Positions 23,672-45,951 of a stretch of 64,000 bases of DNA are shown piece after piece. The notes under the pieces are model-generated. The model saw nothing but the letters and a program-made list of their open reading frames with translations. It was not told the origin of the DNA and made no database searches. The stretch's first letter is position 1, and each line of letters begins with the position of its first letter. Location of the stretch: positions 56,507 through 120,506 of the forward strand of contig CAZNIK010000001.1 of the NCBI GenBank assembly GCA_964573095.1, read 5' to 3'. Made by a program: the position numbers and the translations under genes. Source of the stretch: an uncultured Candidatus Saccharibacteria bacterium (GTDB taxonomy: Bacteria; Patescibacteriota; Saccharimonadia; Saccharimonadales; 2-12-FULL-41-12).

Positions 23672-24886
23672 ATGGCAAATAAAAGTCTAGGTGCAGCAAA
23701 GAATGCAAAAAACGATGAGTTTTATACGCAGTTTTCTGATATCCAAAAAGAAATTGAAGCATACCTAGAATTCGATCCAGACACCTTTCGTGGGAAGGTG
23801 GTGTATTCCAATTGCGATGACCCCTTTGAAAGTAATTTCTTTCGTTACTTTGCACTTAATTTTAACCGTTTGGGCTTAAAAAAACTGATTGCCACAAGCT
23901 ATAAACCGTCACCTATTGCAAACACGCAACTTGGATTATTTGGTGACGATATTACAATTCAGTCTGAAAAAGGCAGGCCAAATGTAACAGCAAATAAGTT
24001 CATTATTAATGAAGTGCATGATATGGATGGAGACGGTGCTTTCAACATCTCGGACATTGCTAAACAACTTAAGGCTAATAAAAATAACGAATGGGGGCCG
24101 CTCAAAGGTGATGGTGATTTTCGTAGTGAAGAATGCTTAGAGCTTCTAGAACAGTCTGACATCGTGGTTACGAATCCTCCATTTAGTCTTTTTCGTGAAT
24201 ACGTAGCACAGCTCATGGAGCACAAAAAGAAATTTTTAATTATAGGAAACATGAATGCAGTTACTTATAAGGAAATTTTTCCTTTGATCAAAGCCAATAA
24301 AATATGGTTGGGAGTGACGCGACAAGGCACTGGATCAATGTGGTTTCAGGTAAGCCAAAACATGCCAGAGAAAACAGGTCAAAGAGTGGATCAAAACGGC
24401 ATACGATACCAAACAATCGGCAATTCGGCGTGGTTTACTAACCTTGATCACGGGCGACGTCATGAAAAACTATCTTTAATGACGACTGATGATGTTGTCA
24501 AGTTTGGAACAAAAAAAGACCTCGTTAAATATGACAATTACGACGCAATTGAAATATCCCTTGTAAAGTATATCCCGAAGGATTACAGGGGCGTAATGGG
24601 TGTACCGATTACTTTTCTAGGAAAGTATAATCCCGAACAATTTGAAATTCTCGGTGCTACACAAAGAGGTTGCCATGATGAGGTTCCTGATACCAGAAAA
24701 TATGATGACTATTGGGAAGTAAGACAAGATGGCACGAATACTGGATCATCTGGCGGCAAAACTAACGAAAACGCAAATCTAGTTGGTAATGATGGTAAGA
24801 AAAACTACTTTATTAACAAGGATGGGCGGATTGTACAATCTGCATATCAACGAGTATTTATTAGACACAGGAAGGAAGCGACATGA
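23672..24886 (+). CDS. DNA N6-adenine methyltransferase, EcoRI-methylase-like family (NPPF catalytic motif)
   Basis: 404 aa. Catalytic motif [10 protein letters not shown] is present. The N-terminal block NDEFYTQ...[22 protein letters not shown]...[11 protein letters not shown] matches my memory of the M.EcoRI family; the family assignment is from recall, not a search. Visibly lower GC than flanking genes. Confidence 0.75.
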
Positions 24887-26046
24887 TAACCACACTAAAA
24901 ACAGATATTATAATACGAGAAATCGTTGAAGGATTTGAATACAACGAACTTGAAGGCAAAGGTCTATTTGGTCTTTCAGGTAAGCTAACCATCCAGCCTG
25001 AATATCAAAGAAATTATATTTATGCTGATGGCAAAAAAGACGTTGCAGTAATAGAAAGTATTTTGAAAGGCTATCCTATTGGTGTTCTATACTTCAACAA
25101 GATAGATGATGATAAATACGAAGTACTAGACGGCCAACAGCGAATAACAAGTATCGGGCGTTTTATTAAAGGTAAATTTGCAGTTAAAGACGTAAATGGC
25201 CACGAACAATACTATAGTGGCATGTCAGAAGAACAGCGTAAGTTGATCCTAGATAAAGAACTACTTATATACATTTGCGAAGGTGAAGAACAGGAAATGA
25301 TGAAGTGGTTTGAAACCATTAACATCGCTGGCGTACCTTTGAAATTGCAAGAAATAAGAAATGCCGTTTACCACGGACCTTTCGTTAATAAAGCAAAAGA
25401 GATTTTCAGCAACAGTCAGGATGCCAATGTTCAAAAATGGAGCACCTATATTGCGGGTGAAGTTAAGCGTCAGGACTTTCTCGAAACAGCATTAGATTGG
25501 GTAAGTAACGGCAATATAGAAGCCTACATGAGCAATCACCGCAATGATGACAATATCGATGAACTTAAAACCCACTTCGACAAAGTTATAGATTGGGTCT
25601 CTTATACATTCACGGACGTACATAGTGAAATGCGAGGGCTTGAATGGGATCGTCTCTATAAAGAATATGGCTCTAGTTCATACGATCCTAAAAAAATCGC
25701 AAGCAAAGTTAAAGAACTTTATACAAGCTATGAAGTGCGTAGGAAGAAAGGTATTTTCGAGTACATTCTTAGCGGTATGGATGATCCGTCTTTGCTCGAG
25801 ATACGGATATTTGAACCTTCAACTATCAAGACAGCCTATGCACAACAAACGGCTAAAGCTGAAGAAGAAGGAGTGTCGAACTGTCCTATTTGTGCTTCAG
25901 GAAGCAACAACAATAAAGACCGAATTTATAAATTATCGGAAATGGATGCGGATCATGTAACTGCATGGAGTAATGGCGGTGTGACCGACATAAGTAACTG
26001 CGAGATGCTGTGCAGTACTCATAATCGCGCAAAAGGCAATAGATAG
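24883..26046 (+). CDS. DUF262 (ParB-like nuclease, DGQQR motif) + C-terminal HNH endonuclease; GmrSD/SspE/BrxU-like
   Basis: 387 aa. The N-terminus [11 protein letters not shown]...[14 protein letters not shown] is the DUF262/ParB-N signature. The C-terminus CPIC...[32 protein letters not shown] is an HNH (His-Me finger) motif. The start ATG overlaps the MTase stop (ATGA) and is preceded by a GAAGGAAG Shine-Dalgarno sequence. Confidence 0.75.
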
Positions 26047-26062
26047 AAGATAGCTCTAAATC

Positions 26063-26923
26063 ATGAATTTAAAGAAAATATATAATAGCACCACCACCCT
26101 GGAAGAATGGCTCTCATATAAAGGTTCCACTGAAGATGGCGAGAGTTCTTATTTTGAGAACAAGGAAGTTGGCATTGATTTGAACACGACAACTCCAAGC
26201 ACAGTTGGCGACTTCAAGCTTCGCATCGCAAAAGAAATGTCTGCATTTGCTAATACTGATTCAGGGATTATAGCACTCGGAATTGATAGCAAGCTGCAAG
26301 TTAATAATCTGACTGCTCGTCTAGAGGATTGGCTCGATAAAAATATTCGAGATATGCTGGAGCCGCAACTATCAGGTATCGCTCTTAAAACATGCACAGA
26401 TTCTGCTGGCAACGAGTTTGTCTTGATGTATGTGCCCAAGGGCAATGTTATTCCGTACAGGGCGAGTTCCGTGAAAAGCTGTGAAAAAGAAAAAAAGAAT
26501 TTGCGGGAATATTTCCAGAGAACTGGTACCAATAGCGTACCCATACCTATGCCCATAGTTCGGAGCCTGTATCTATCAAATGAACGCGCAACAGACGTGT
26601 CAGCTCGCGTAAAGCCAGTCGCAGTCCATCTAGGTGATGAGGAGGAGCAGCCATATATCGAGTTGGGTATAGAAATTAAGCCCGACCAGACGCGCCTTAT
26701 TAACGAATACTACCTCAAAGCAAGTGTTCTTCTCCTTGATGTAAACTTGAAGCCTCTGAATAAGGTAGCGATTGACCTCGTACCATTTGGACCAAATAGT
26801 CCACAACGACCTATAATTCCACCCGATAGCATTTATCCTATGAATGAATTCGGTACGGTAAGCGTAACAAGGATGAATATTAACTTTTCGGATAAGTCGA
26901 GTGATTATCACTCGGGGTATTGA
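26063..26923 (+). CDS. AlbA_2 / Schlafen-like (putative DNA-binding 'divergent AAA') domain protein with uncharacterised C-terminal domain
   Basis: The N-terminal 150 aa fits the AlbA_2 pattern (YFENKEV...EMSAFANTDSGIIALGIDSK...NEFVLMYVPKGNVIPYRA...YFQRTG). The C-terminal ~130 aa was not recognised. The gene is AT-rich like the two preceding genes. Confidence 0.5.
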   Translation: MNLKKIYNSTTTLEEWLSYKGSTEDGESSYFENKEVGIDLNTTTPSTVGDFKLRIAKEMSAFANTDSGIIALGIDSKLQVNNLTARLEDWLDKNIRDMLEPQLSGIALKTCTDSAGNEFVLMYVPKGNVIPYRASSVKSCEKEKKNLREYFQRTGTNSVPIPMPIVRSLYLSNERATDVSARVKPVAVHLGDEEEQPYIELGIEIKPDQTRLINEYYLKASVLLLDVNLKPLNKVAIDLVPFGPNSPQRPIIPPDSIYPMNEFGTVSVTRMNINFSDKSSDYHSGY

Positions 26924-41340: not shown

Positions 41341-42114
41341 CTAGATTTTTGTTTCCCAGCAGGCGCACGCGAGCGCCTCTTTTATCTTTGTGGGGTTCTG
41401 AAGAGCCCACACGGCCGCTAGCGGAGCAATATTCTCATTTTGCGACGAAGTAGTTGAGATTACTTCGCCTTGATGTGTCACCCACAGCGTCTGGTTGTCG
41501 ACTACCATTACAAAACTTCTGCAACTCTCCGAGACTTCTTTGAGCGACTGCGCAAATTGAGGGGGTGCCTGGGTAGACGTTATCGGTTGCAGTACTTTTA
41601 GCTCGCGGGCAGCATTCTGAATGTCGCGGTGGGTAAACATCACCACTCGTTGATCAGATGACAAGATGTCGGACGCGTCAAGCGTTATAGTGGTGAGGGC
41701 ATTTGTGGCGATAATCATCGTTTTGGGACAGGTTTGCATGAACTGCTCAATCAATAGACTTGTTTCGCTATTCTTGCCAAGATCACCAGCAATCAAGACA
41801 CCATCTGACCAGCGGGCGAGTTCTAAAAGCTCTGCCAGAGAGGTTTTTGCAAACCCACCGCTTGGATTGCTCGGGGCGTACTCAATAAAATCAAAACCGT
41901 GTGTTATTTTGCGCAGACTATCTGGAACAACTGCCCGCACATGTCCCGCCCCCGCCGCGCTGGATCCGGCGAAGCTTCGGGCAACAACAGAGAATCCCGC
42001 AGAACTTCCACCAATAATCAACAACTTACCTGCTCCACGCTTTGTGACTGGCTTGCTCCAAAGTAGGTCTGGATATAACGGCTTATCCCTTTGCTGCTTC
42101 CAGTAGCCCGCCAC
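41341..42114 (-). CDS. NAD(P)H-hydrate dehydratase-like (YjeF C-terminal / carbohydrate-kinase fold) protein
   Basis: KRGAGKLLIIGGSSAGFSVVARSFAGSSAAGAGHVRAVVP...DGVLIAGDLG fits the YjeF_C pattern. Confidence 0.5.
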   Translation of the reverse strand: MAGYWKQQRDKPLYPDLLWSKPVTKRGAGKLLIIGGSSAGFSVVARSFAGSSAAGAGHVRAVVPDSLRKITHGFDFIEYAPSNPSGGFAKTSLAELLELARWSDGVLIAGDLGKNSETSLLIEQFMQTCPKTMIIATNALTTITLDASDILSSDQRVVMFTHRDIQNAARELKVLQPITSTQAPPQFAQSLKEVSESCRSFVMVVDNQTLWVTHQGEVISTTSSQNENIAPLAAVWALQNPTKIKEALACACWETKI

Positions 42115-43040
42115 TAAAAAATCAATCCTATCAGTGTTTGGCCTACGTCGTAGTTTGAGCGATCAGAGCCAGAGTGGCCTGCAAGGGTCCAGTGTAGTTG
42201 ACTGTTTGGGAGGGCGTTGTGGAGTGCGTAGGCCGACGCTGGCAAGCACACCATGTCATACCGACCGTGCACAATATGAATTGGCATGGTGAGTTTGTTG
42301 GCGTTTTTTAGTATGTAATCGTCTTTGATAAAACAGTTATTGCTGACGTAGTGGGCAATTATACGAGCGTAGGATATGTCGTAGTCTTCGTAATCTCGAA
42401 GCTTAAATCGATGATCCAAGGGAATAATGCTTCCCTCACCTTCTGTGTAGTGGTAGGCTGCCTTTTTTGAGTTTTTTTCGAGAATTTGTTGGCGGAGGTA
42501 TGCACCGGGACGGTCCAAATATTTCTTTGGAATATTCTTTACGTAAAATTCGTATACTTCTGGAAAAAAGATGCGATATCCGGCGTTGTCAAACCAGTCT
42601 AGCTCTTCTTTTGTGCCAAGCATAATCCCGGCAATAAGCATTTTGCTGACCCGCTCTGGGTGCGAAATTCCGTACATGAGCGCCAGGGTTGAACCCCACG
42701 AACCCCCGTAAAGCGCAAATTTTTTGATTGCGAGCTTTGAGCGAATAAGCTCAATATCCGCTATTAAATGGTCGGTGGTGTTGTGTTGTATCGATCCTTT
42801 AGGAATACTGTTCCCTGCGCCGCGTTGGTCGAAAAAAACTACATAATGTTTTTTAGGGTCAAAACGGTCTTTGTGCTTGTCGGACAGACCAGCTCCAGGC
42901 CCACCGTGCAGGAAGATAATCGGCGTGCCTTTGTCATTTCCCCACTCTTGTACATATATTGTGTGATGTCCGTCTGTGGTTTTCCATCTGTGTTCAGCGA
43001 TGGTGTGTTTATCTCGAGTAAAATTTTTTAGACCACTCAT
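42114..43040 (-). CDS. pip: Proline iminopeptidase (S33 alpha/beta-hydrolase)
   Basis: 308 aa; nucleophile elbow GGSWGS, and HGGPG near the N-terminus, typical of prolyl aminopeptidases. Confidence 0.65.
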   Translation of the reverse strand: MSGLKNFTRDKHTIAEHRWKTTDGHHTIYVQEWGNDKGTPIIFLHGGPGAGLSDKHKDRFDPKKHYVVFFDQRGAGNSIPKGSIQHNTTDHLIADIELIRSKLAIKKFALYGGSWGSTLALMYGISHPERVSKMLIAGIMLGTKEELDWFDNAGYRIFFPEVYEFYVKNIPKKYLDRPGAYLRQQILEKNSKKAAYHYTEGEGSIIPLDHRFKLRDYEDYDISYARIIAHYVSNNCFIKDDYILKNANKLTMPIHIVHGRYDMVCLPASAYALHNALPNSQLHWTLAGHSGSDRSNYDVGQTLIGLIF

Positions 43041-43059: not shown

Positions 43060-44292
43060 TTAAGACGCTTGAAGCCTACGGAGATTTACTGCATCGGACA
43101 GTAGGTTTAACATTTTTTCTGTTTCCGCAAGGCCGACACAGCCATCAGTTATGCTTTGGCCATAGACCAGGTTTTTCTGGTCATCAAGCGATTGTGATCC
43201 CTCTACAAGATTACTCTCTATCATTACGCCCTTGATCGCCACTTCTCCGAGCGCAATCTGATGAGAAACATTGCTGATCACCTCGGCTTGCTTTCGAAAA
43301 TCCTTGTTACTATTTGCGTGCGCGGCATCAATTAGTATGGCTTCGAGCAAGTTTTTGTCGCGAAGGATGTTTTTCGCAGCCTCAACCTGTGCAGGAAAAT
43401 AATTTGGTCCTTCTTGGCTTCCCCGAAGAATAATGTGGGCCATCACGTTTCCTGTGGTCGTCACTTGCATCGGAGTGCCTTGCATATTCATGCCCAAAAA
43501 GTCGTGTGGTGCGTTGGCAGCTACTACTGCTTCGGCTGCTGCCTGGATGCTGCCTTCGGGAGTGTTTTTGAAACCAACTGGAGAAGATGTACCAGAAGCA
43601 TATTCTCGGGCTTTTTGGTCAGTGGTATTTCTCGCACCAATTGCATCGTAGGCAACAAGCCCGTTAAAGTACTGAGGCGTATTAGCGTTTAATCGTTCCA
43701 TGGCGATGGGCATGCCTAGGTTTGTAATTTGACACGACAACATTCTAGATAAAACTATTCCAAGGTTAATATCGTTTGAGTCGTCGAGCCTGGGGTCGTA
43801 TTCAAAACCTTTCCAGCCAAGTTCGGTTCTTGGTTTTGCCATGTACGCTCGCATGACAATCTCAAGATTATCCTTATGAAATTCGCGCTGCTCGTAAAGC
43901 CAGCTTGCGTATTCCAGAGCGCTTTCGGCGTCGTGAATCGAGCATGGTCCCACAATCGCGACCAAGCGATCATCTTTACTCGAAAGGATCGCTTCAATAG
44001 AGGATCGACTTTTGCGGGTGGTGTTTGCGCTTTCTTCGGTAACCGGTAAAACTTGCGCCAGCGCCTTTGGGGTAAGGACTGGTGTTTTTTCTGCAATTCG
44101 AGTGTCAACAATATCATCTTCGTTTATCTCCGTGGTTGGTTTGTACCCAAGGTCCTCTCGCACATTTTCGAGGAGCTGTAGTTCGGTTTGTTCGGCAACC
44201 TCAGCCGCGCGTTCTTGTATGCGTAGCAGCGAATCCTTTATTCGTTCAGCCTCATGGATGGGGTTTAATTGTGGTGTTGTTTCTGGTGACAT
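43060..44292 (-). CDS. aroG: 3-deoxy-7-phosphoheptulonate (DAHP) synthase, class I (AroF/G/H type) with ~50-aa N-terminal extension
   Basis: KDDRLVAIVGPCSIHD and the downstream class-I motifs; strong RBS AAAGGAGAAG 7 nt before the ATG at 44292. Confidence 0.8.
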   Translation of the reverse strand: MSPETTPQLNPIHEAERIKDSLLRIQERAAEVAEQTELQLLENVREDLGYKPTTEINEDDIVDTRIAEKTPVLTPKALAQVLPVTEESANTTRKSRSSIEAILSSKDDRLVAIVGPCSIHDAESALEYASWLYEQREFHKDNLEIVMRAYMAKPRTELGWKGFEYDPRLDDSNDINLGIVLSRMLSCQITNLGMPIAMERLNANTPQYFNGLVAYDAIGARNTTDQKAREYASGTSSPVGFKNTPEGSIQAAAEAVVAANAPHDFLGMNMQGTPMQVTTTGNVMAHIILRGSQEGPNYFPAQVEAAKNILRDKNLLEAILIDAAHANSNKDFRKQAEVISNVSHQIALGEVAIKGVMIESNLVEGSQSLDDQKNLVYGQSITDGCVGLAETEKMLNLLSDAVNLRRLQAS

Positions 44293-44307
44293 TACTTCTC
44301 CTTTAGA

Positions 44308-44335
44308 ATAATAAAAAACCGCCGTAGTGGCGGTG
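44308..44335 (-). terminator. Intrinsic terminator in aroG leader (attenuator): CCGCCACTACGGCGG + U6
   Basis: On the minus strand: CACCGCCACTACGGCGGTTTTTTATTATT, sitting between the leader-peptide ORF and the aroG RBS. Confidence 0.6.
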
Positions 44336-44357
44336 TAGCTTACTGACTTTAGTTAAT

Positions 44358-44435
44358 CTATTTTTTAGATTGCAGGTGCATACCGCCGCTTTTTCGGCTC
44401 GTAAACCAGAAGAAACTATAGTATGCGTTACTCAT
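44358..44435 (-). CDS. aroG leader peptide (25 aa: MSNAYYSFFWFTSRKSGGMHLQSKK), aromatic-codon attenuation sensor
   Basis: A minus-strand ATG at 44435 opens a 25-codon ORF containing the run Tyr-Tyr-Ser-Phe-Phe-Trp-Phe. It ends 22 nt before the terminator hairpin. The GCGGCGG segment inside the ORF can alternatively pair with the 5' arm of the terminator, giving an antiterminator. Confidence 0.55.
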   Translation of the reverse strand: MSNAYYSFFWFTSRKSGGMHLQSKK

Positions 44436-44564
44436 AACTATTAGAGATGATAACCCATAATCGCCCCAAATGGCAAGGTGTGGATAAGAAGGGTTGACGC
44501 ATAAGCGCTTTATGCTACTATCAGAGTTAGTATCTAAAAAAACTAAAAAACAAAAAGGTTAAAC

Positions 44565-44855
44565 ATGTCAAAAAGCAAATTAGTAAATTCCGAGCATGGC
44601 ATTGCCCATCTTGGGTTAATTCTGGTTGCTCTCGTTGTTATTGGGGTGGCGGGCTTCGCAGCCTACCGCGTAACCAGCCAAAACAACAAGAACGATAGTG
44701 TTGCAACCAACCAACAAACTGCAGCAGATGAAGATTCTGATATGGCCTACGACGATAGCTCGAAAGCGCTTGAGAAGAGCATCGAAAATTCAGATAAAGA
44801 TGTGAATGCTCAAAGCGATGCATCTACAAATGCTTCGGAGGCTAGCAATGAATAA
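44565..44855 (+). CDS. Hypothetical small membrane protein with acidic tail
   Basis: 96 aa; one TM (LGLILVALVVIGVAGFAAY) followed by a D/E/S-rich tail. Confidence 0.3.
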   Translation: MSKSKLVNSEHGIAHLGLILVALVVIGVAGFAAYRVTSQNNKNDSVATNQQTAADEDSDMAYDDSSKALEKSIENSDKDVNAQSDASTNASEASNE

Positions 44856-45951
44856 GAATCACTTAAAGCAAATTAGTTTATTTGGTATAAGCGCCGTATT
44901 TTCCCTATCCGTTTTGGCGGTTCCAGTAGCAGTTAGGGCGGCCACAACCGGCGGTACTGCTGCCCCAAGTTCGACAGACCAAGGCATCTCGGTGACGTTC
45001 AAAAGCGAAGCCGATTGTGTAGCTGGTGTACAAGCTGCGTCACTCGAAAAAATTAAGGCGTACGGCGAAAACAGAGTTAAGGGTCGCCTTAACAGCATTA
45101 ATTTCAAAAGCAAGTCGGGCGAAGGCAGTAAGTTTGGTAACGACGTATCGATAGAAAAATTTTACAAAGTTAAAATTGATGCGCTTAACAATCATAAGGC
45201 CGAAGCAGATAAACTGATCAAGCAAGAAACAGCCAAAGTGTCTCAACCAACAGGTGGGGTCGCGGCTCCCGCAACTGTTGATGTTTCAAGCTATGTCACT
45301 CGATTGGAAACTGACAAGCGTGACATGAAGGCCGTAGTGGCAAATGCAAAAACTGTGCTTACAAAAAGCCAGGCTGATCTAAAGACCGCAGACTCACAGC
45401 AAAAAGCTGCCGAAGCAGCTTGTGCTGCGGTTTGGAAAACAAGAATGCAGACCTATCAATGGCAGCGCTGGCTCAATCAACAGAGTATTGACAATTCTTA
45501 CCTAAATCTTGCGCTGGTTGACGTAAGTAACCAAGTTGCAACTAAGCTTTCGGTGTTAACCAAGGCTAATCCAACTGCTAACAAAGCAGCCTTGGCACAA
45601 GTGAAGACTTTGCCGGATGTTGCACCGGTGCTAAAAAGTCTCGACGCAACCAACGGTGTACTTAAGGGAATAACTATTGACGAGATTAATCAAATCCCAT
45701 CAACGGCGAGTCCTGCAGCGACAAAAGCCTACTTCGCGACCAAGGTTGGCAACCTTAAGGCTACTAAGGCCCAGATTAAGCAAATGTATGAAGCCTCCAA
45801 GAAAGTTAAGGAAGCAGTTCGTGCAGAAGTAAAGAAGAGTTACAAAGGAACGGCTCAAGCAAAAAAAGTCGAAACCAAGCAAGGCGTTGACGTAAAAAAG
45901 AATAACAGCTCATCTACGCGCCAAGGAGGAACTCAAGCTCCTAGCCGATAG
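44806..45951 (+). CDS. Hypothetical secreted/membrane-anchored protein (signal peptide, Ala/Lys-rich coiled-coil-like)
   Basis: 381 aa; N-terminal signal-like helix (ISLFGISAVFSLSVLAVPVAVRAA); no recognised domain. Confidence 0.35.
   Translation: MLKAMHLQMLRRLAMNKNHLKQISLFGISAVFSLSVLAVPVAVRAATTGGTAAPSSTDQGISVTFKSEADCVAGVQAASLEKIKAYGENRVKGRLNSINFKSKSGEGSKFGNDVSIEKFYKVKIDALNNHKAEADKLIKQETAKVSQPTGGVAAPATVDVSSYVTRLETDKRDMKAVVANAKTVLTKSQADLKTADSQQKAAEAACAAVWKTRMQTYQWQRWLNQQSIDNSYLNLALVDVSNQVATKLSVLTKANPTANKAALAQVKTLPDVAPVLKSLDATNGVLKGITIDEINQIPSTASPAATKAYFATKVGNLKATKAQIKQMYEASKKVKEAVRAEVKKSYKGTAQAKKVETKQGVDVKKNNSSSTRQGGTQAPSR

Follow-up and report, generated by a model that had tools for sequence, protein, structure and literature searches.

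The DNA analysed here is a stretch of 64,000 nucleotides (nt), referred to as the window, from an uncultured Candidatus Saccharibacteria bacterium of the Saccharimonadales (assembly GCA_964573095.1, contig CAZNIK010000001.1, positions 56,507 to 120,506), and its minus strand carries a candidate transcription attenuator upstream of a gene (aroG) for DAHP synthase (3-deoxy-7-phosphoheptulonate synthase; DAHPS). In the direction of transcription the locus consists of a promoter-like site, a short open reading frame (ORF) with the aromatic run YYSFFWF, a segment inside that ORF (region 2) that is complementary to the 5' arm (region 3) of a downstream intrinsic terminator, the 3' arm of the terminator (region 4) with its run of six Ts, and the Shine-Dalgarno (SD) sequence of the DAHPS gene, which comes after the terminator and is left free by it (Table 1). 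Labels composed of L and a number designate the corresponding loci of relatives.

Table 1. Features of the DAHPS locus in the window, and leader peptides of the related loci
Feature	Coordinates	Strand	Remarks
Promoter-like site	44447..44476	-	-35 TTGCCA 44476..44471; spacer 18 nt; -10 TATCAT 44452..44447; 10/12 consensus matches
Leader ORF	44358..44435	-	ATG, 25 codons + TAG; peptide MSNAYYSFFWFTSRKSGGMHLQSKK; no SD
Aromatic codon run, putative stall site	44403..44423	-	Y5 Y6 S7 F8 F9 W10 F11 = TAC TAT AGT TTC TTC TGG TTT
1:2 hairpin, predicted anti-antiterminator	44378..44426	-	Leader nt 9-57; -15.5 kcal/mol
Mini-hairpin inside 1:2 hairpin	44385..44398	-	GCCG 44398..44395, loop AAAAAG, CGGC 44388..44385; -6.4 kcal/mol
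Region 2, antiterminator 5' strand	44382..44389	-	GCGGCGGT; complements terminator 5' arm
Small hairpin AATCTA-AAAAA-TAGATT	44355..44371	-	Holds leader stop TAG 44360..44358; -2.7 kcal/mol, weak alone
Intrinsic terminator	44313..44334	-	Stem -10.5 kcal/mol; region 3 ACCGCC 44334..44329, loop ACTAC, region 4 GGCGGT 44323..44318, T6 44318..44313
SD of DAHPS gene	44298..44304	-	AAAGGAG, 5 nt ahead of DAHPS ATG at 44292
DAHP synthase, class I-alpha AroF/G/H type	43060..44292	-	410 aa
Prolyl-aminopeptidase-like alpha/beta hydrolase	43040..42114	-	19 nt gap after DAHPS
Weakly YjeF-C-like protein	42114..41341	-	257 aa; overlaps hydrolase gene
Leader peptide, L001			MSNAYYSFFWFTSPKRGGSSSFDQ
Leader peptide, L161			MLRVLSLSNNYWFTDTPVAVCSVRS
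Leader peptide, L163			MLKVRNFYYWFAAPQLAVCSVRFRG
Leader peptide, L164			MSILSTSNSQYWFTDTSSGGYFAVFA
Leader peptide, L165			MSRLSANSNQYWFTDSSRGGYFAVFA
Leader peptide, L166			MLIADTYLFTETPYGGLLDV
Leader peptide, L167			MSRLMYTGQFWFTDTFMWRSFTQCS
Leader peptide, L169			MSRFQDGSPYWFSGSARGGRLRLNA
Leader peptide, L170			MSSNQQNCAYWFTPYYPSGYLAVSA
Leader peptide, L172			MSIAKSNYTWFTDLYDDGCFNVHL
Leader peptide, L173			MNKLSQIFFYWFAYPQVAVCSVRS
Leader peptide, L175			MSAMQYNQWWFTGANRGGSYCVSA
Leader peptide, L176			MSAQRHNAFWFTGFHEAVSLGVCIN
Leader peptide, L177			MSAQRYNAFWFTGFSRGGKLSVSA

A first-pass annotation of this DNA had described a 25-codon leader on the minus strand with six aromatic residues in the seven of YYSFFWF, a segment capable of pairing with the 5' arm of a terminator, the terminator with its U6 tract just ahead of a strong ribosome-binding site, and DAHP synthase as the regulated gene. 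All of these are present as described, and two family profiles agree on the identity of the gene product (PF00793, 230 bits; TIGR00034, 391 bits against a cutoff of 173), which also matches NF009395 (424 bits, cutoff 343). The extent given for the element, 44292-44470, stops just short of the -35 box.

The aromatic run is exceptional within the window. Only four runs with at least six aromatic residues in seven occur in the six-frame translation of the 64 kb, and YYSFFWF is the sole one that combines Phe, Trp and Tyr and the sole one that lies in a short ATG-initiated ORF; shuffled windows contain a mean of 0.08 short ATG-ORFs with at least six aromatic residues in seven. The terminator pattern occurs once, against an expectation of zero. 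Neither a second copy of the leader nor another member of a regulon was found in the 64 kb window by pattern search or with the covariance model described below.

Conservation of the leader

The comparison set comprises 15 leaders, that of the window and those of 14 lineages whose DAHP synthases are 54-89% identical to the window's in protein sequence. The nearest genome match, and the only close relative in the genome scan, is a Candidatus Saccharimonadales metagenome-assembled genome (L001, 89% DAHPS identity); for the lineages other than L001, contigs were taken for the most divergent DAHPS homologs of a large protein collection, in which more than 100 full-length homologs are 53-63% identical to the query. 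Those homologs that have a named source are nearly all from Saccharibacteria, Saccharimonadales or Patescibacteria, with one from Dormibacteraeota. The remaining DAHPS matches in genomes and JGI metagenomes are at most 48% identical (47% for the best from JGI) and belong to unrelated phyla, and 79 other loci from the genome scan served as negative controls.

A promoter, an ATG-initiated ORF of 20-26 amino acids with an aromatic core, region 2, the terminator and an SD sequence are common to all 15 leaders. The first-pass annotation had named loss of the leader in relatives as the observation that would refute it, and the opposite was found, with ORF, core, antiterminator and terminator kept in all 14 lineages. 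The core reads [Y/F/W]-W-F in frame with the ATG in 13 of the 15 leaders, Y-L-F in L166 and Y-T-W-F in L172. The ancestral core is one codon each for Tyr, Trp and Phe, and the expansion to YYSFFWF is specific to the lineage of the window and L001. The W codon follows the ATG at a distance of 21, 27, 30 or 33 nt, always in frame and without an intervening stop, over sequence that is variable, and the peptide tail past the core is not conserved among the 15 leaders. Spacing downstream is similarly confined (22-29 nt from stop codon to terminator, 113-129 nt from ATG to terminator end), and 14-15 of the 15 leaders have an unchanged ACCGCC/GGCGGT terminator stem, around a loop that varies in sequence and length in almost every lineage.

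The closest pair, the window and L001, differ unevenly along the leader. Codons 1-13 are 95% identical, the sole changes (TAT>TAC and TTC>TTT) being synonymous changes in aromatic codons, and the terminator arms are 100% identical around a loop of 38% identity; the leader tail and the spacer between stop codon and terminator are each 58% identical, and third codon positions of the DAHPS gene 65%. This pattern of segment identities points to selection on specific parts of the leader. Under a control rule calling for an ATG-ORF of 10-40 amino acids with three consecutive aromatic residues and a perfect-stem terminator within 60 nt, 13 of the 15 family leaders match, compared with none of 141 distant DAHPS loci. 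Family members reach 72-110 bits under a covariance model derived from the leader alignment (R1), whereas about 850 kb of control loci yield no score above 26 bits; the model matches the window once.

Two of the assemblies contain split genes: rplM, trpS and trpC appear as two ORFs each in L176 (ENA ERZ25039495 contig_30877) and L172 (ERZ25039522 contig_23123). Because split genes suggest indel errors, small differences in the frame of the tail in these two loci should not be over-read. A tail frameshift between L176 and L177, considered as a sign of an unconstrained tail, was discounted on account of probable indel errors in the L176 assembly.

None of the 15 leaders has an SD sequence ahead of its ATG. 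The promoter of the relatives is mostly TTGACA-17-TATATT, and exactly 7 nt separate it from the ATG in 12 of 15 leaders, a spacing accompanied by a pyrimidine at position -1; in three leaders the gap between -10 box and ATG is 9-11 nt (11 nt in the window and 10 nt in L001, where the promoter hexamers of the window are conserved). A near-consensus promoter that ends 7 nt before an SD-less ATG, with a pyrimidine at -1, suggests that most relatives produce a leaderless mRNA starting at the A of the AUG, and the consensus hexamers by themselves imply a 5' untranslated region of about 3-5 nt for the window and L001. Thus, the leader is probably translated from a leaderless or near-leaderless mRNA. 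An SD-less leader peptide is documented for ilvB of Corynebacterium, according to the passage of PMC4046766 that cites Morbach 2000.

In three relatives (L164:1300-1345, L165:1310-1356 and L167:1310-1358) the promoter spacer contains a second TTGACA copy (ATTGACA or CTTGACA) to which the opening 8 nt of the leader (ATGTCAAT or ATGTCAAG) form the reverse complement, the outer base changing in concert on both sides (A..T versus C..G). This inverted repeat, not evident in the window, may be a repressor operator over the -10 box.

On the other side of the promoter, the window encodes a divergent 96-residue ORF (44565-44855, plus strand) with one predicted hydrophobic helix and an acidic, Ser-rich tail, which shares the 129-nt intergenic region with the leader promoter, is conserved in L001 and has no match in Pfam. 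That the terminator belongs to an upstream gene is ruled out, the window's neighbour being divergent and rpsI of L165 having its own terminator before the leader promoter.

Alternative RNA structures and the proposed mechanism

The CGGT of region 2 is found 16-18 nt past the last Phe codon of the core (21 nt in L169). Toeprinting in general puts the front of a ribosome roughly 10 nt downstream of the codon in its A site; with the Phe codon in that site, region 2 would lie just beyond the front. Across lineages region 2 falls in all three reading frames, where it is read as G-G, as V-A-V or L-A-V, and as W-R-S or G-R-L; this result rests on L161/L162, L163, L173/L174, L167/L168 and L169, each of the three pairs representing a leader observed in two assemblies. 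Because GGCGGT is read in three frames, the constraint on region 2 acts on the RNA and not on the peptide.

The antiterminator, in which region 2 pairs with region 3, forms its six core pairs in 13-15 of the 15 leaders, and 73% of its alignment cells are paired in register compared with 32-56% when the partner strand is slid. Each lineage extends the 2:3 helix in its own way (GTGGCGGTTTGTTC with GAAGAAACCGCCAC in L161, GCGGTTAT with ATAACCGC in L170, CGGTTGCT with AGTAACCG in L172), so that duplexes of strands from the same lineage are more stable than those combined across lineages (-16.5 versus -14.2 kcal/mol, permutation p=1e-4). This anchor-based comparison is more informative than counts of covariation in a fixed register, which are no more than suggestive because the helix cores are invariant and the flanking helices have lineage-specific bulges. 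RNAalifold, applied to a MAFFT alignment in which L163 is misaligned by 2-3 columns near the terminator, returns the terminator only and cannot display alternative folds.

A competing 1:2 hairpin (ACCGnCnC/GnGGCGGU) is located directly past the Phe codon in most lineages, 68% paired in register compared with 26-42% when slid. In the window the aromatic tract itself (44426..44404) pairs with 44399..44378, region 2 included, and an analogous long hairpin with different pairs is predicted for L001. The mini-hairpin GCCG-AAAAAG-CGGC singled out by the first-pass annotation does exist, but as a partner for region 2 in this sequence it is surpassed in stability and is not the conserved one, and by predicted energies (Table 1) the anti-antiterminator of the window is better described as the 49-nt hairpin than as the 4-bp mini-hairpin. 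The small hairpin at the leader stop codon falls within the antiterminator loop; most relatives have a hairpin of differing sequence at the equivalent position.

The balance between the two folds was calculated for the window's own leader as the free energy of the antiterminator minus that of the terminator. The terminator is favoured in the modelled free RNA (+5.3 kcal/mol) and with a ribosome at the stop codon (+7.4 kcal/mol), whereas with a ribosome on any of the codons F8-F11 the antiterminator is predicted to be competitive (-2.0 to +1.7 kcal/mol). In these models, masking region 1 moves the balance from terminator to antiterminator, as the first-pass annotation had predicted. Folds of RNA truncated before region 4, which mimic the co-transcriptional state, were used in addition because the equilibrium minimum free energy structures do not always switch cleanly (full-length leaders of L165, L166 and L170 retain the terminator in all states); once truncated, all 15 leaders form the 2:3 helix with a ribosome stalled at W or F.

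What the analysis shows is the set of elements, how they are conserved, spaced and complementary, and how the energetics depend on state; from these, the start site of transcription, the translation of the leader, stalling, and termination and read-through in vivo can be inferred as follows. Transcription would start a few nucleotides before the leader AUG in the window, or at the AUG itself in most relatives, and a ribosome would load on the leaderless or near-leaderless mRNA as it emerges. With ample charged tRNA-Tyr, tRNA-Phe and tRNA-Trp, the ribosome would read through region 2 while the polymerase makes regions 3 and 4; because the ORF spans region 2, a translating ribosome would physically occupy the antiterminator strand, which after departure of the ribosome could be caught in the 1:2 hairpin. 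The terminator ACCGCC/GGCGGT-U6 would then form, and transcription would stop before aroG. When any one of the three charged tRNAs is scarce, the ribosome would stall on YYSFFWF, its footprint melting the 5' strand of the 1:2 hairpin but ending short of region 2, and the freed region 2 would pair with the emerging region 3, block the terminator and allow aroG and the downstream genes to be transcribed. Since 2:3 pairing gives a more stable helix than 3:4 pairing, termination probably needs ongoing translation or the 1:2 hairpin as a kinetic trap.

The locus is thus very probably a transcription attenuator of the ribosome-mediated (leader-peptide) type, acting on the DAHP synthase operon of this Saccharimonadales bacterium. 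The conserved layout and the modelled dependence of folding on ribosome position both support this reading, which the first-pass annotation had put forward.

Several observations weigh against it. Most lineages have a single codon each for Tyr, Trp and Phe, which by classical standards makes a weak sensor. The start site of transcription is placed by consensus hexamers only, and efficient translation is an assumption for an ATG that has no SD sequence and, in the window, stands 11 nt from the -10 box instead of 7. At equilibrium the terminator of the window keeps an advantage of 1.7 kcal/mol when the ribosome stalls exactly at W10 or F11. Free RNA truncated before region 4 still forms the 2:3 helix in 12 of 15 leaders, so the 1:2 hairpin can act only as a kinetic trap, and a ribosome at the stop codon covers region 2 incompletely, the end of region 2 being about 21 nt upstream of the stop. 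The near-invariant helix cores leave little strict compensatory covariation, and the fixed-register counts for the antiterminator are reached by 25-56 of 500 shuffles. Finally, details of the leaders of L172 and L176 are less reliable, since the split genes of these assemblies suggest indel errors.

Competing explanations

One alternative, which is improbable, is that the leader acts as an RNA element recognised by a protein or binding a ligand (candidates being a TRAP-like or PyrR-like RNA-binding protein, a T-box or a novel riboswitch), the small ORF being incidental, or that control is exerted mainly at the promoter by a TrpR-like repressor. The conservation of TGGTTTAC and GGCGGT at the nucleotide level would be expected of an RNA element, but no match to Trp_leader, Phe_leader, other curated leaders or T-box was found by Rfam search of 43900..44900 even at E<=10, searches of the whole window at the gathering score returned no leader family or T-box, only tRNAs and noise, and a leader of about 120 nt is too short for a T-box. 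An untranslated RNA, moreover, fails to explain why the ATG stays in frame with the core despite variation in the length and sequence between them, or why the ATG is placed at the predicted start of transcription. As for a repressor, a TrpR-family gene follows the DAHPS gene in L161, L167, L169 and L172, and the inverted repeat of L164, L165 and L167 could be an operator and could coexist with attenuation; there is no TrpR-like gene near the locus in the window, and a repressor would leave the pair of terminator and antiterminator unexplained.

Another alternative takes the peptide itself as the sensor. TnaC is a 24-residue peptide with the sequence K-W-F-N-I-D and the residues W12 and P24. 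By analogy, the W-F-T core in the exit tunnel would sense free tryptophan or another aromatic ligand instead of aminoacyl-tRNA, and arrest near the stop codon would decide between terminator and antiterminator. Most of the leaders are 24-26 residues long with 12-15 residues from W to the C-terminus, which resembles TnaC, and the single Trp codon of most lineages is weak for tRNA sensing. Thr follows W-F in 11 of the 15 leaders, encoded by all four Thr codons, with Ala or Ser otherwise; this position (columns 40-42 of alignment A1) hints at a constraint on the peptide beyond simple tRNA sensing. Against a TnaC-like sensor, the tail between core and stop is unconserved and read in three frames, a terminal Pro or Asp at fixed spacing is not conserved in the 15 leaders, and L166 has L in place of W. 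The RNA elements fully explain the spacing (region 2 at 16-18 nt past the Phe codon, the stop at 22-29 nt before the terminator), and the ACN codon doubles as the 5' strand of the 1:2 helix. It is very unlikely that the near-invariant W-F-(T) core, the peptide length and the span of about 14 residues between Trp and the stop codon reflect a TnaC-like sensor wired to an intrinsic terminator, which would hold the ribosome over or near region 2 and so enforce termination, and not merely RNA spacing; if they did, the family would constitute a new class of arrest peptides in bacteria of the Candidate Phyla Radiation (CPR).

The coincidence of an ordinary terminator or insulator hairpin with an aromatic-rich ORF arisen by chance in moderately AT-rich DNA between genes is effectively refuted: T-rich DNA readily yields aromatic-rich peptides (for example, the TTG-initiated ORF MTCLTFLFFSFFRY about 100 nt further upstream), and for the window alone a short ATG-ORF with six aromatic residues in seven arises in about 8% of shuffled windows, but the layout is kept in 14 lineages and absent from the 141 control loci, the spacings are fixed, the segment identities between window and L001 point to selection, and the covariance model separates the family from the controls, while a single recently transferred cassette is opposed by protein identities of 54-63% and differing gene contexts.

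Gene context and comparison with known attenuators

In the window the DAHPS gene is followed by the hydrolase and YjeF-C-like genes (Table 1). No terminator-like site was found on the minus strand among these three genes, their order is repeated in L001, and the two downstream genes are probably co-transcribed with the DAHPS gene. No other gene of shikimate, Phe/Tyr or Trp biosynthesis was found among the approximately 45 annotated ORFs of the 64 kb window, so that the DAHPS gene of this genome stands separate from whatever else there is of an aromatic pathway.

Other genes follow the leader and DAHPS gene in the relatives. L175, L176 and L177 have trpS (L175:1958-2980, TIGR00233 281 bits; L177:1522-2538), and L164 (2760-4242) and L170 (2787-4245) have an M20-family ArgE/DapE-type deacylase and a class-Ib tRNA synthetase gene. 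In L167 (2756-3868), L169 (2771-3845) and L172 (2792-3888) the DAHPS gene is followed by a TrpR-family gene (PF01371/TIGR01321-like), trpC and trpB, and in L161 (1534-1791) by the TrpR-family gene alone; the TrpR-like domain of L167 is fused to TrpC in one protein of 370 amino acids. DAHP synthase catalyses the first step in making aromatic amino acids, in keeping with control by an aromatic leader. Because the operons of relatives carry trpS or the TrpR-like gene with trpC and trpB, the element is tied to the supply of aromatic amino acids, especially tryptophan. The TrpR-like gene beside an attenuated DAHPS gene suggests dual control by repressor and attenuator, with an unusual fusion of repressor and enzyme, and the presence of peptidases and trpS under an aromatic attenuator hints at a broader "aromatic starvation" operon.

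Compared with models of AroF/G/H, the DAHP synthase itself is extended at its N-terminus by about 57-62 residues (residues 1-60, window 44112-44292). Homologs from outside the CPR all align from residue 58-63, and the extension is retained among the 120 homologs listed (query coverage 93-100%). It could be an additional allosteric or oligomerisation element.

Elsewhere in the window, a small cluster of defence type (23672-26923, plus strand) is located beside a tRNA-Glu gene and encodes an EcoRI-like adenine methyltransferase (PF13651, 431 bits), a GmrSD/HNH restriction endonuclease and a Schlafen AlbA_2-domain protein.

The usual picture of Saccharibacteria and the rest of the CPR is one of reduced epibionts supplied with amino acids by their hosts, and to our knowledge almost nothing is known of cis-regulatory RNA in the CPR. 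An attenuator conserved across a Saccharimonadales clade would mean that these lineages make aromatic compounds, probably tryptophan, and tune their synthesis to tRNA charging; it also points to a coupling of transcription and translation tight enough for attenuation and to probable translation of leaderless mRNAs in Saccharimonadales. The literature searched contains no report of attenuation or leader peptides in Saccharibacteria, the CPR or Patescibacteria, which is not proof of absence, and this may be the first family of leader-peptide attenuators in the CPR. If so, it would indicate tight coupling on leaderless mRNAs and actively regulated aromatic or tryptophan biosynthesis in some Saccharimonadales. 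The motif (promoter, ATG..[YFW]WF, 16-18 nt, GGCGGT, ACCGCC-loop-GGCGGT-Tn) can be used with model R1 in the annotation of CPR genomes, and the two together could serve to read the aromatic-amino-acid status of a community from metatranscriptomes.

Among known systems, the T-box of Firmicutes likewise lets tRNA charging select between terminator and antiterminator upstream of aro, trp and aminoacyl-tRNA synthetase genes, but T-box leaders are about 200 nt or more in length, whereas the leader described here is about 120 nt, contains a conserved, probably translated ORF and has neither specifier loop nor T-box sequence. TnaC of the E. coli tna operon is comparable in the length of the peptide (24-26 residues here) and in the W-F dipeptide, found here at positions 10-13. 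TnaC, however, needs its conserved W12, D16 and P24, acts via Rho and controls a catabolic operon, whereas here the tail is unconserved and variable in frame, a terminal Pro is lacking, and a biosynthetic gene preceded by an intrinsic terminator is the target.

The enterobacterial trpL and pheL leaders share the four-region logic, in which the regulatory codons are within or beside region 1 and the 1:2 and 3:4 helices exclude the 2:3 helix, and the position of an intrinsic terminator just before the first structural gene. They differ in having an SD-dependent start and one type of regulatory codon, in contrast to the SD-less start and the mixture of Tyr, Phe and Trp codons found here. The trpL ORF stops before region 2, whereas the Saccharimonadales leader runs through region 2 and ends about 21 nt beyond it, and here, unlike in trpL and pheL, the 2:3 helix exceeds the 3:4 helix in stability.

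The closest analogue is the aroR leader of Corynebacterium glutamicum (Phe-Tyr-Phe), which attenuates the DAHP synthase gene aroF (cg1129) (PMC4046766, Mentz 2013; PMC11802643) and is reported to respond to limitation for Phe (PMC11802643, PMC4046766, PMC7356990; Neshat 2014 is cited in PMC11802643 and PMC7356990). In both, a DAHP synthase gene is preceded by a short leader ORF in which three aromatic codons stand side by side, and aroR too is read as a ribosome-mediated attenuator sensing the supply of aromatic aminoacyl-tRNA, an interpretation that has been demonstrated in part. The two differ in their hosts (Actinobacteria versus CPR/Saccharimonadales), in the presence of Trp in the Saccharimonadales peptides (a W-F core, or Y-L-F in L166, expanded to YYSFFWF in the window) and in the location of region 2 inside the ORF; an independent origin seems likely, aroR being compared here by its description in the literature only. 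This specific leader, of which the first-pass annotation knew no description, is undescribed, but the concept was already known from aroR and aroF. The Saccharimonadales leader is a clade-wide member of a known regulatory kind and not a new mechanism; because the device is a textbook one and its closest analogue, aroR-aroF, is already known, the advance lies in its distribution and in what it indicates about the physiology of these bacteria.

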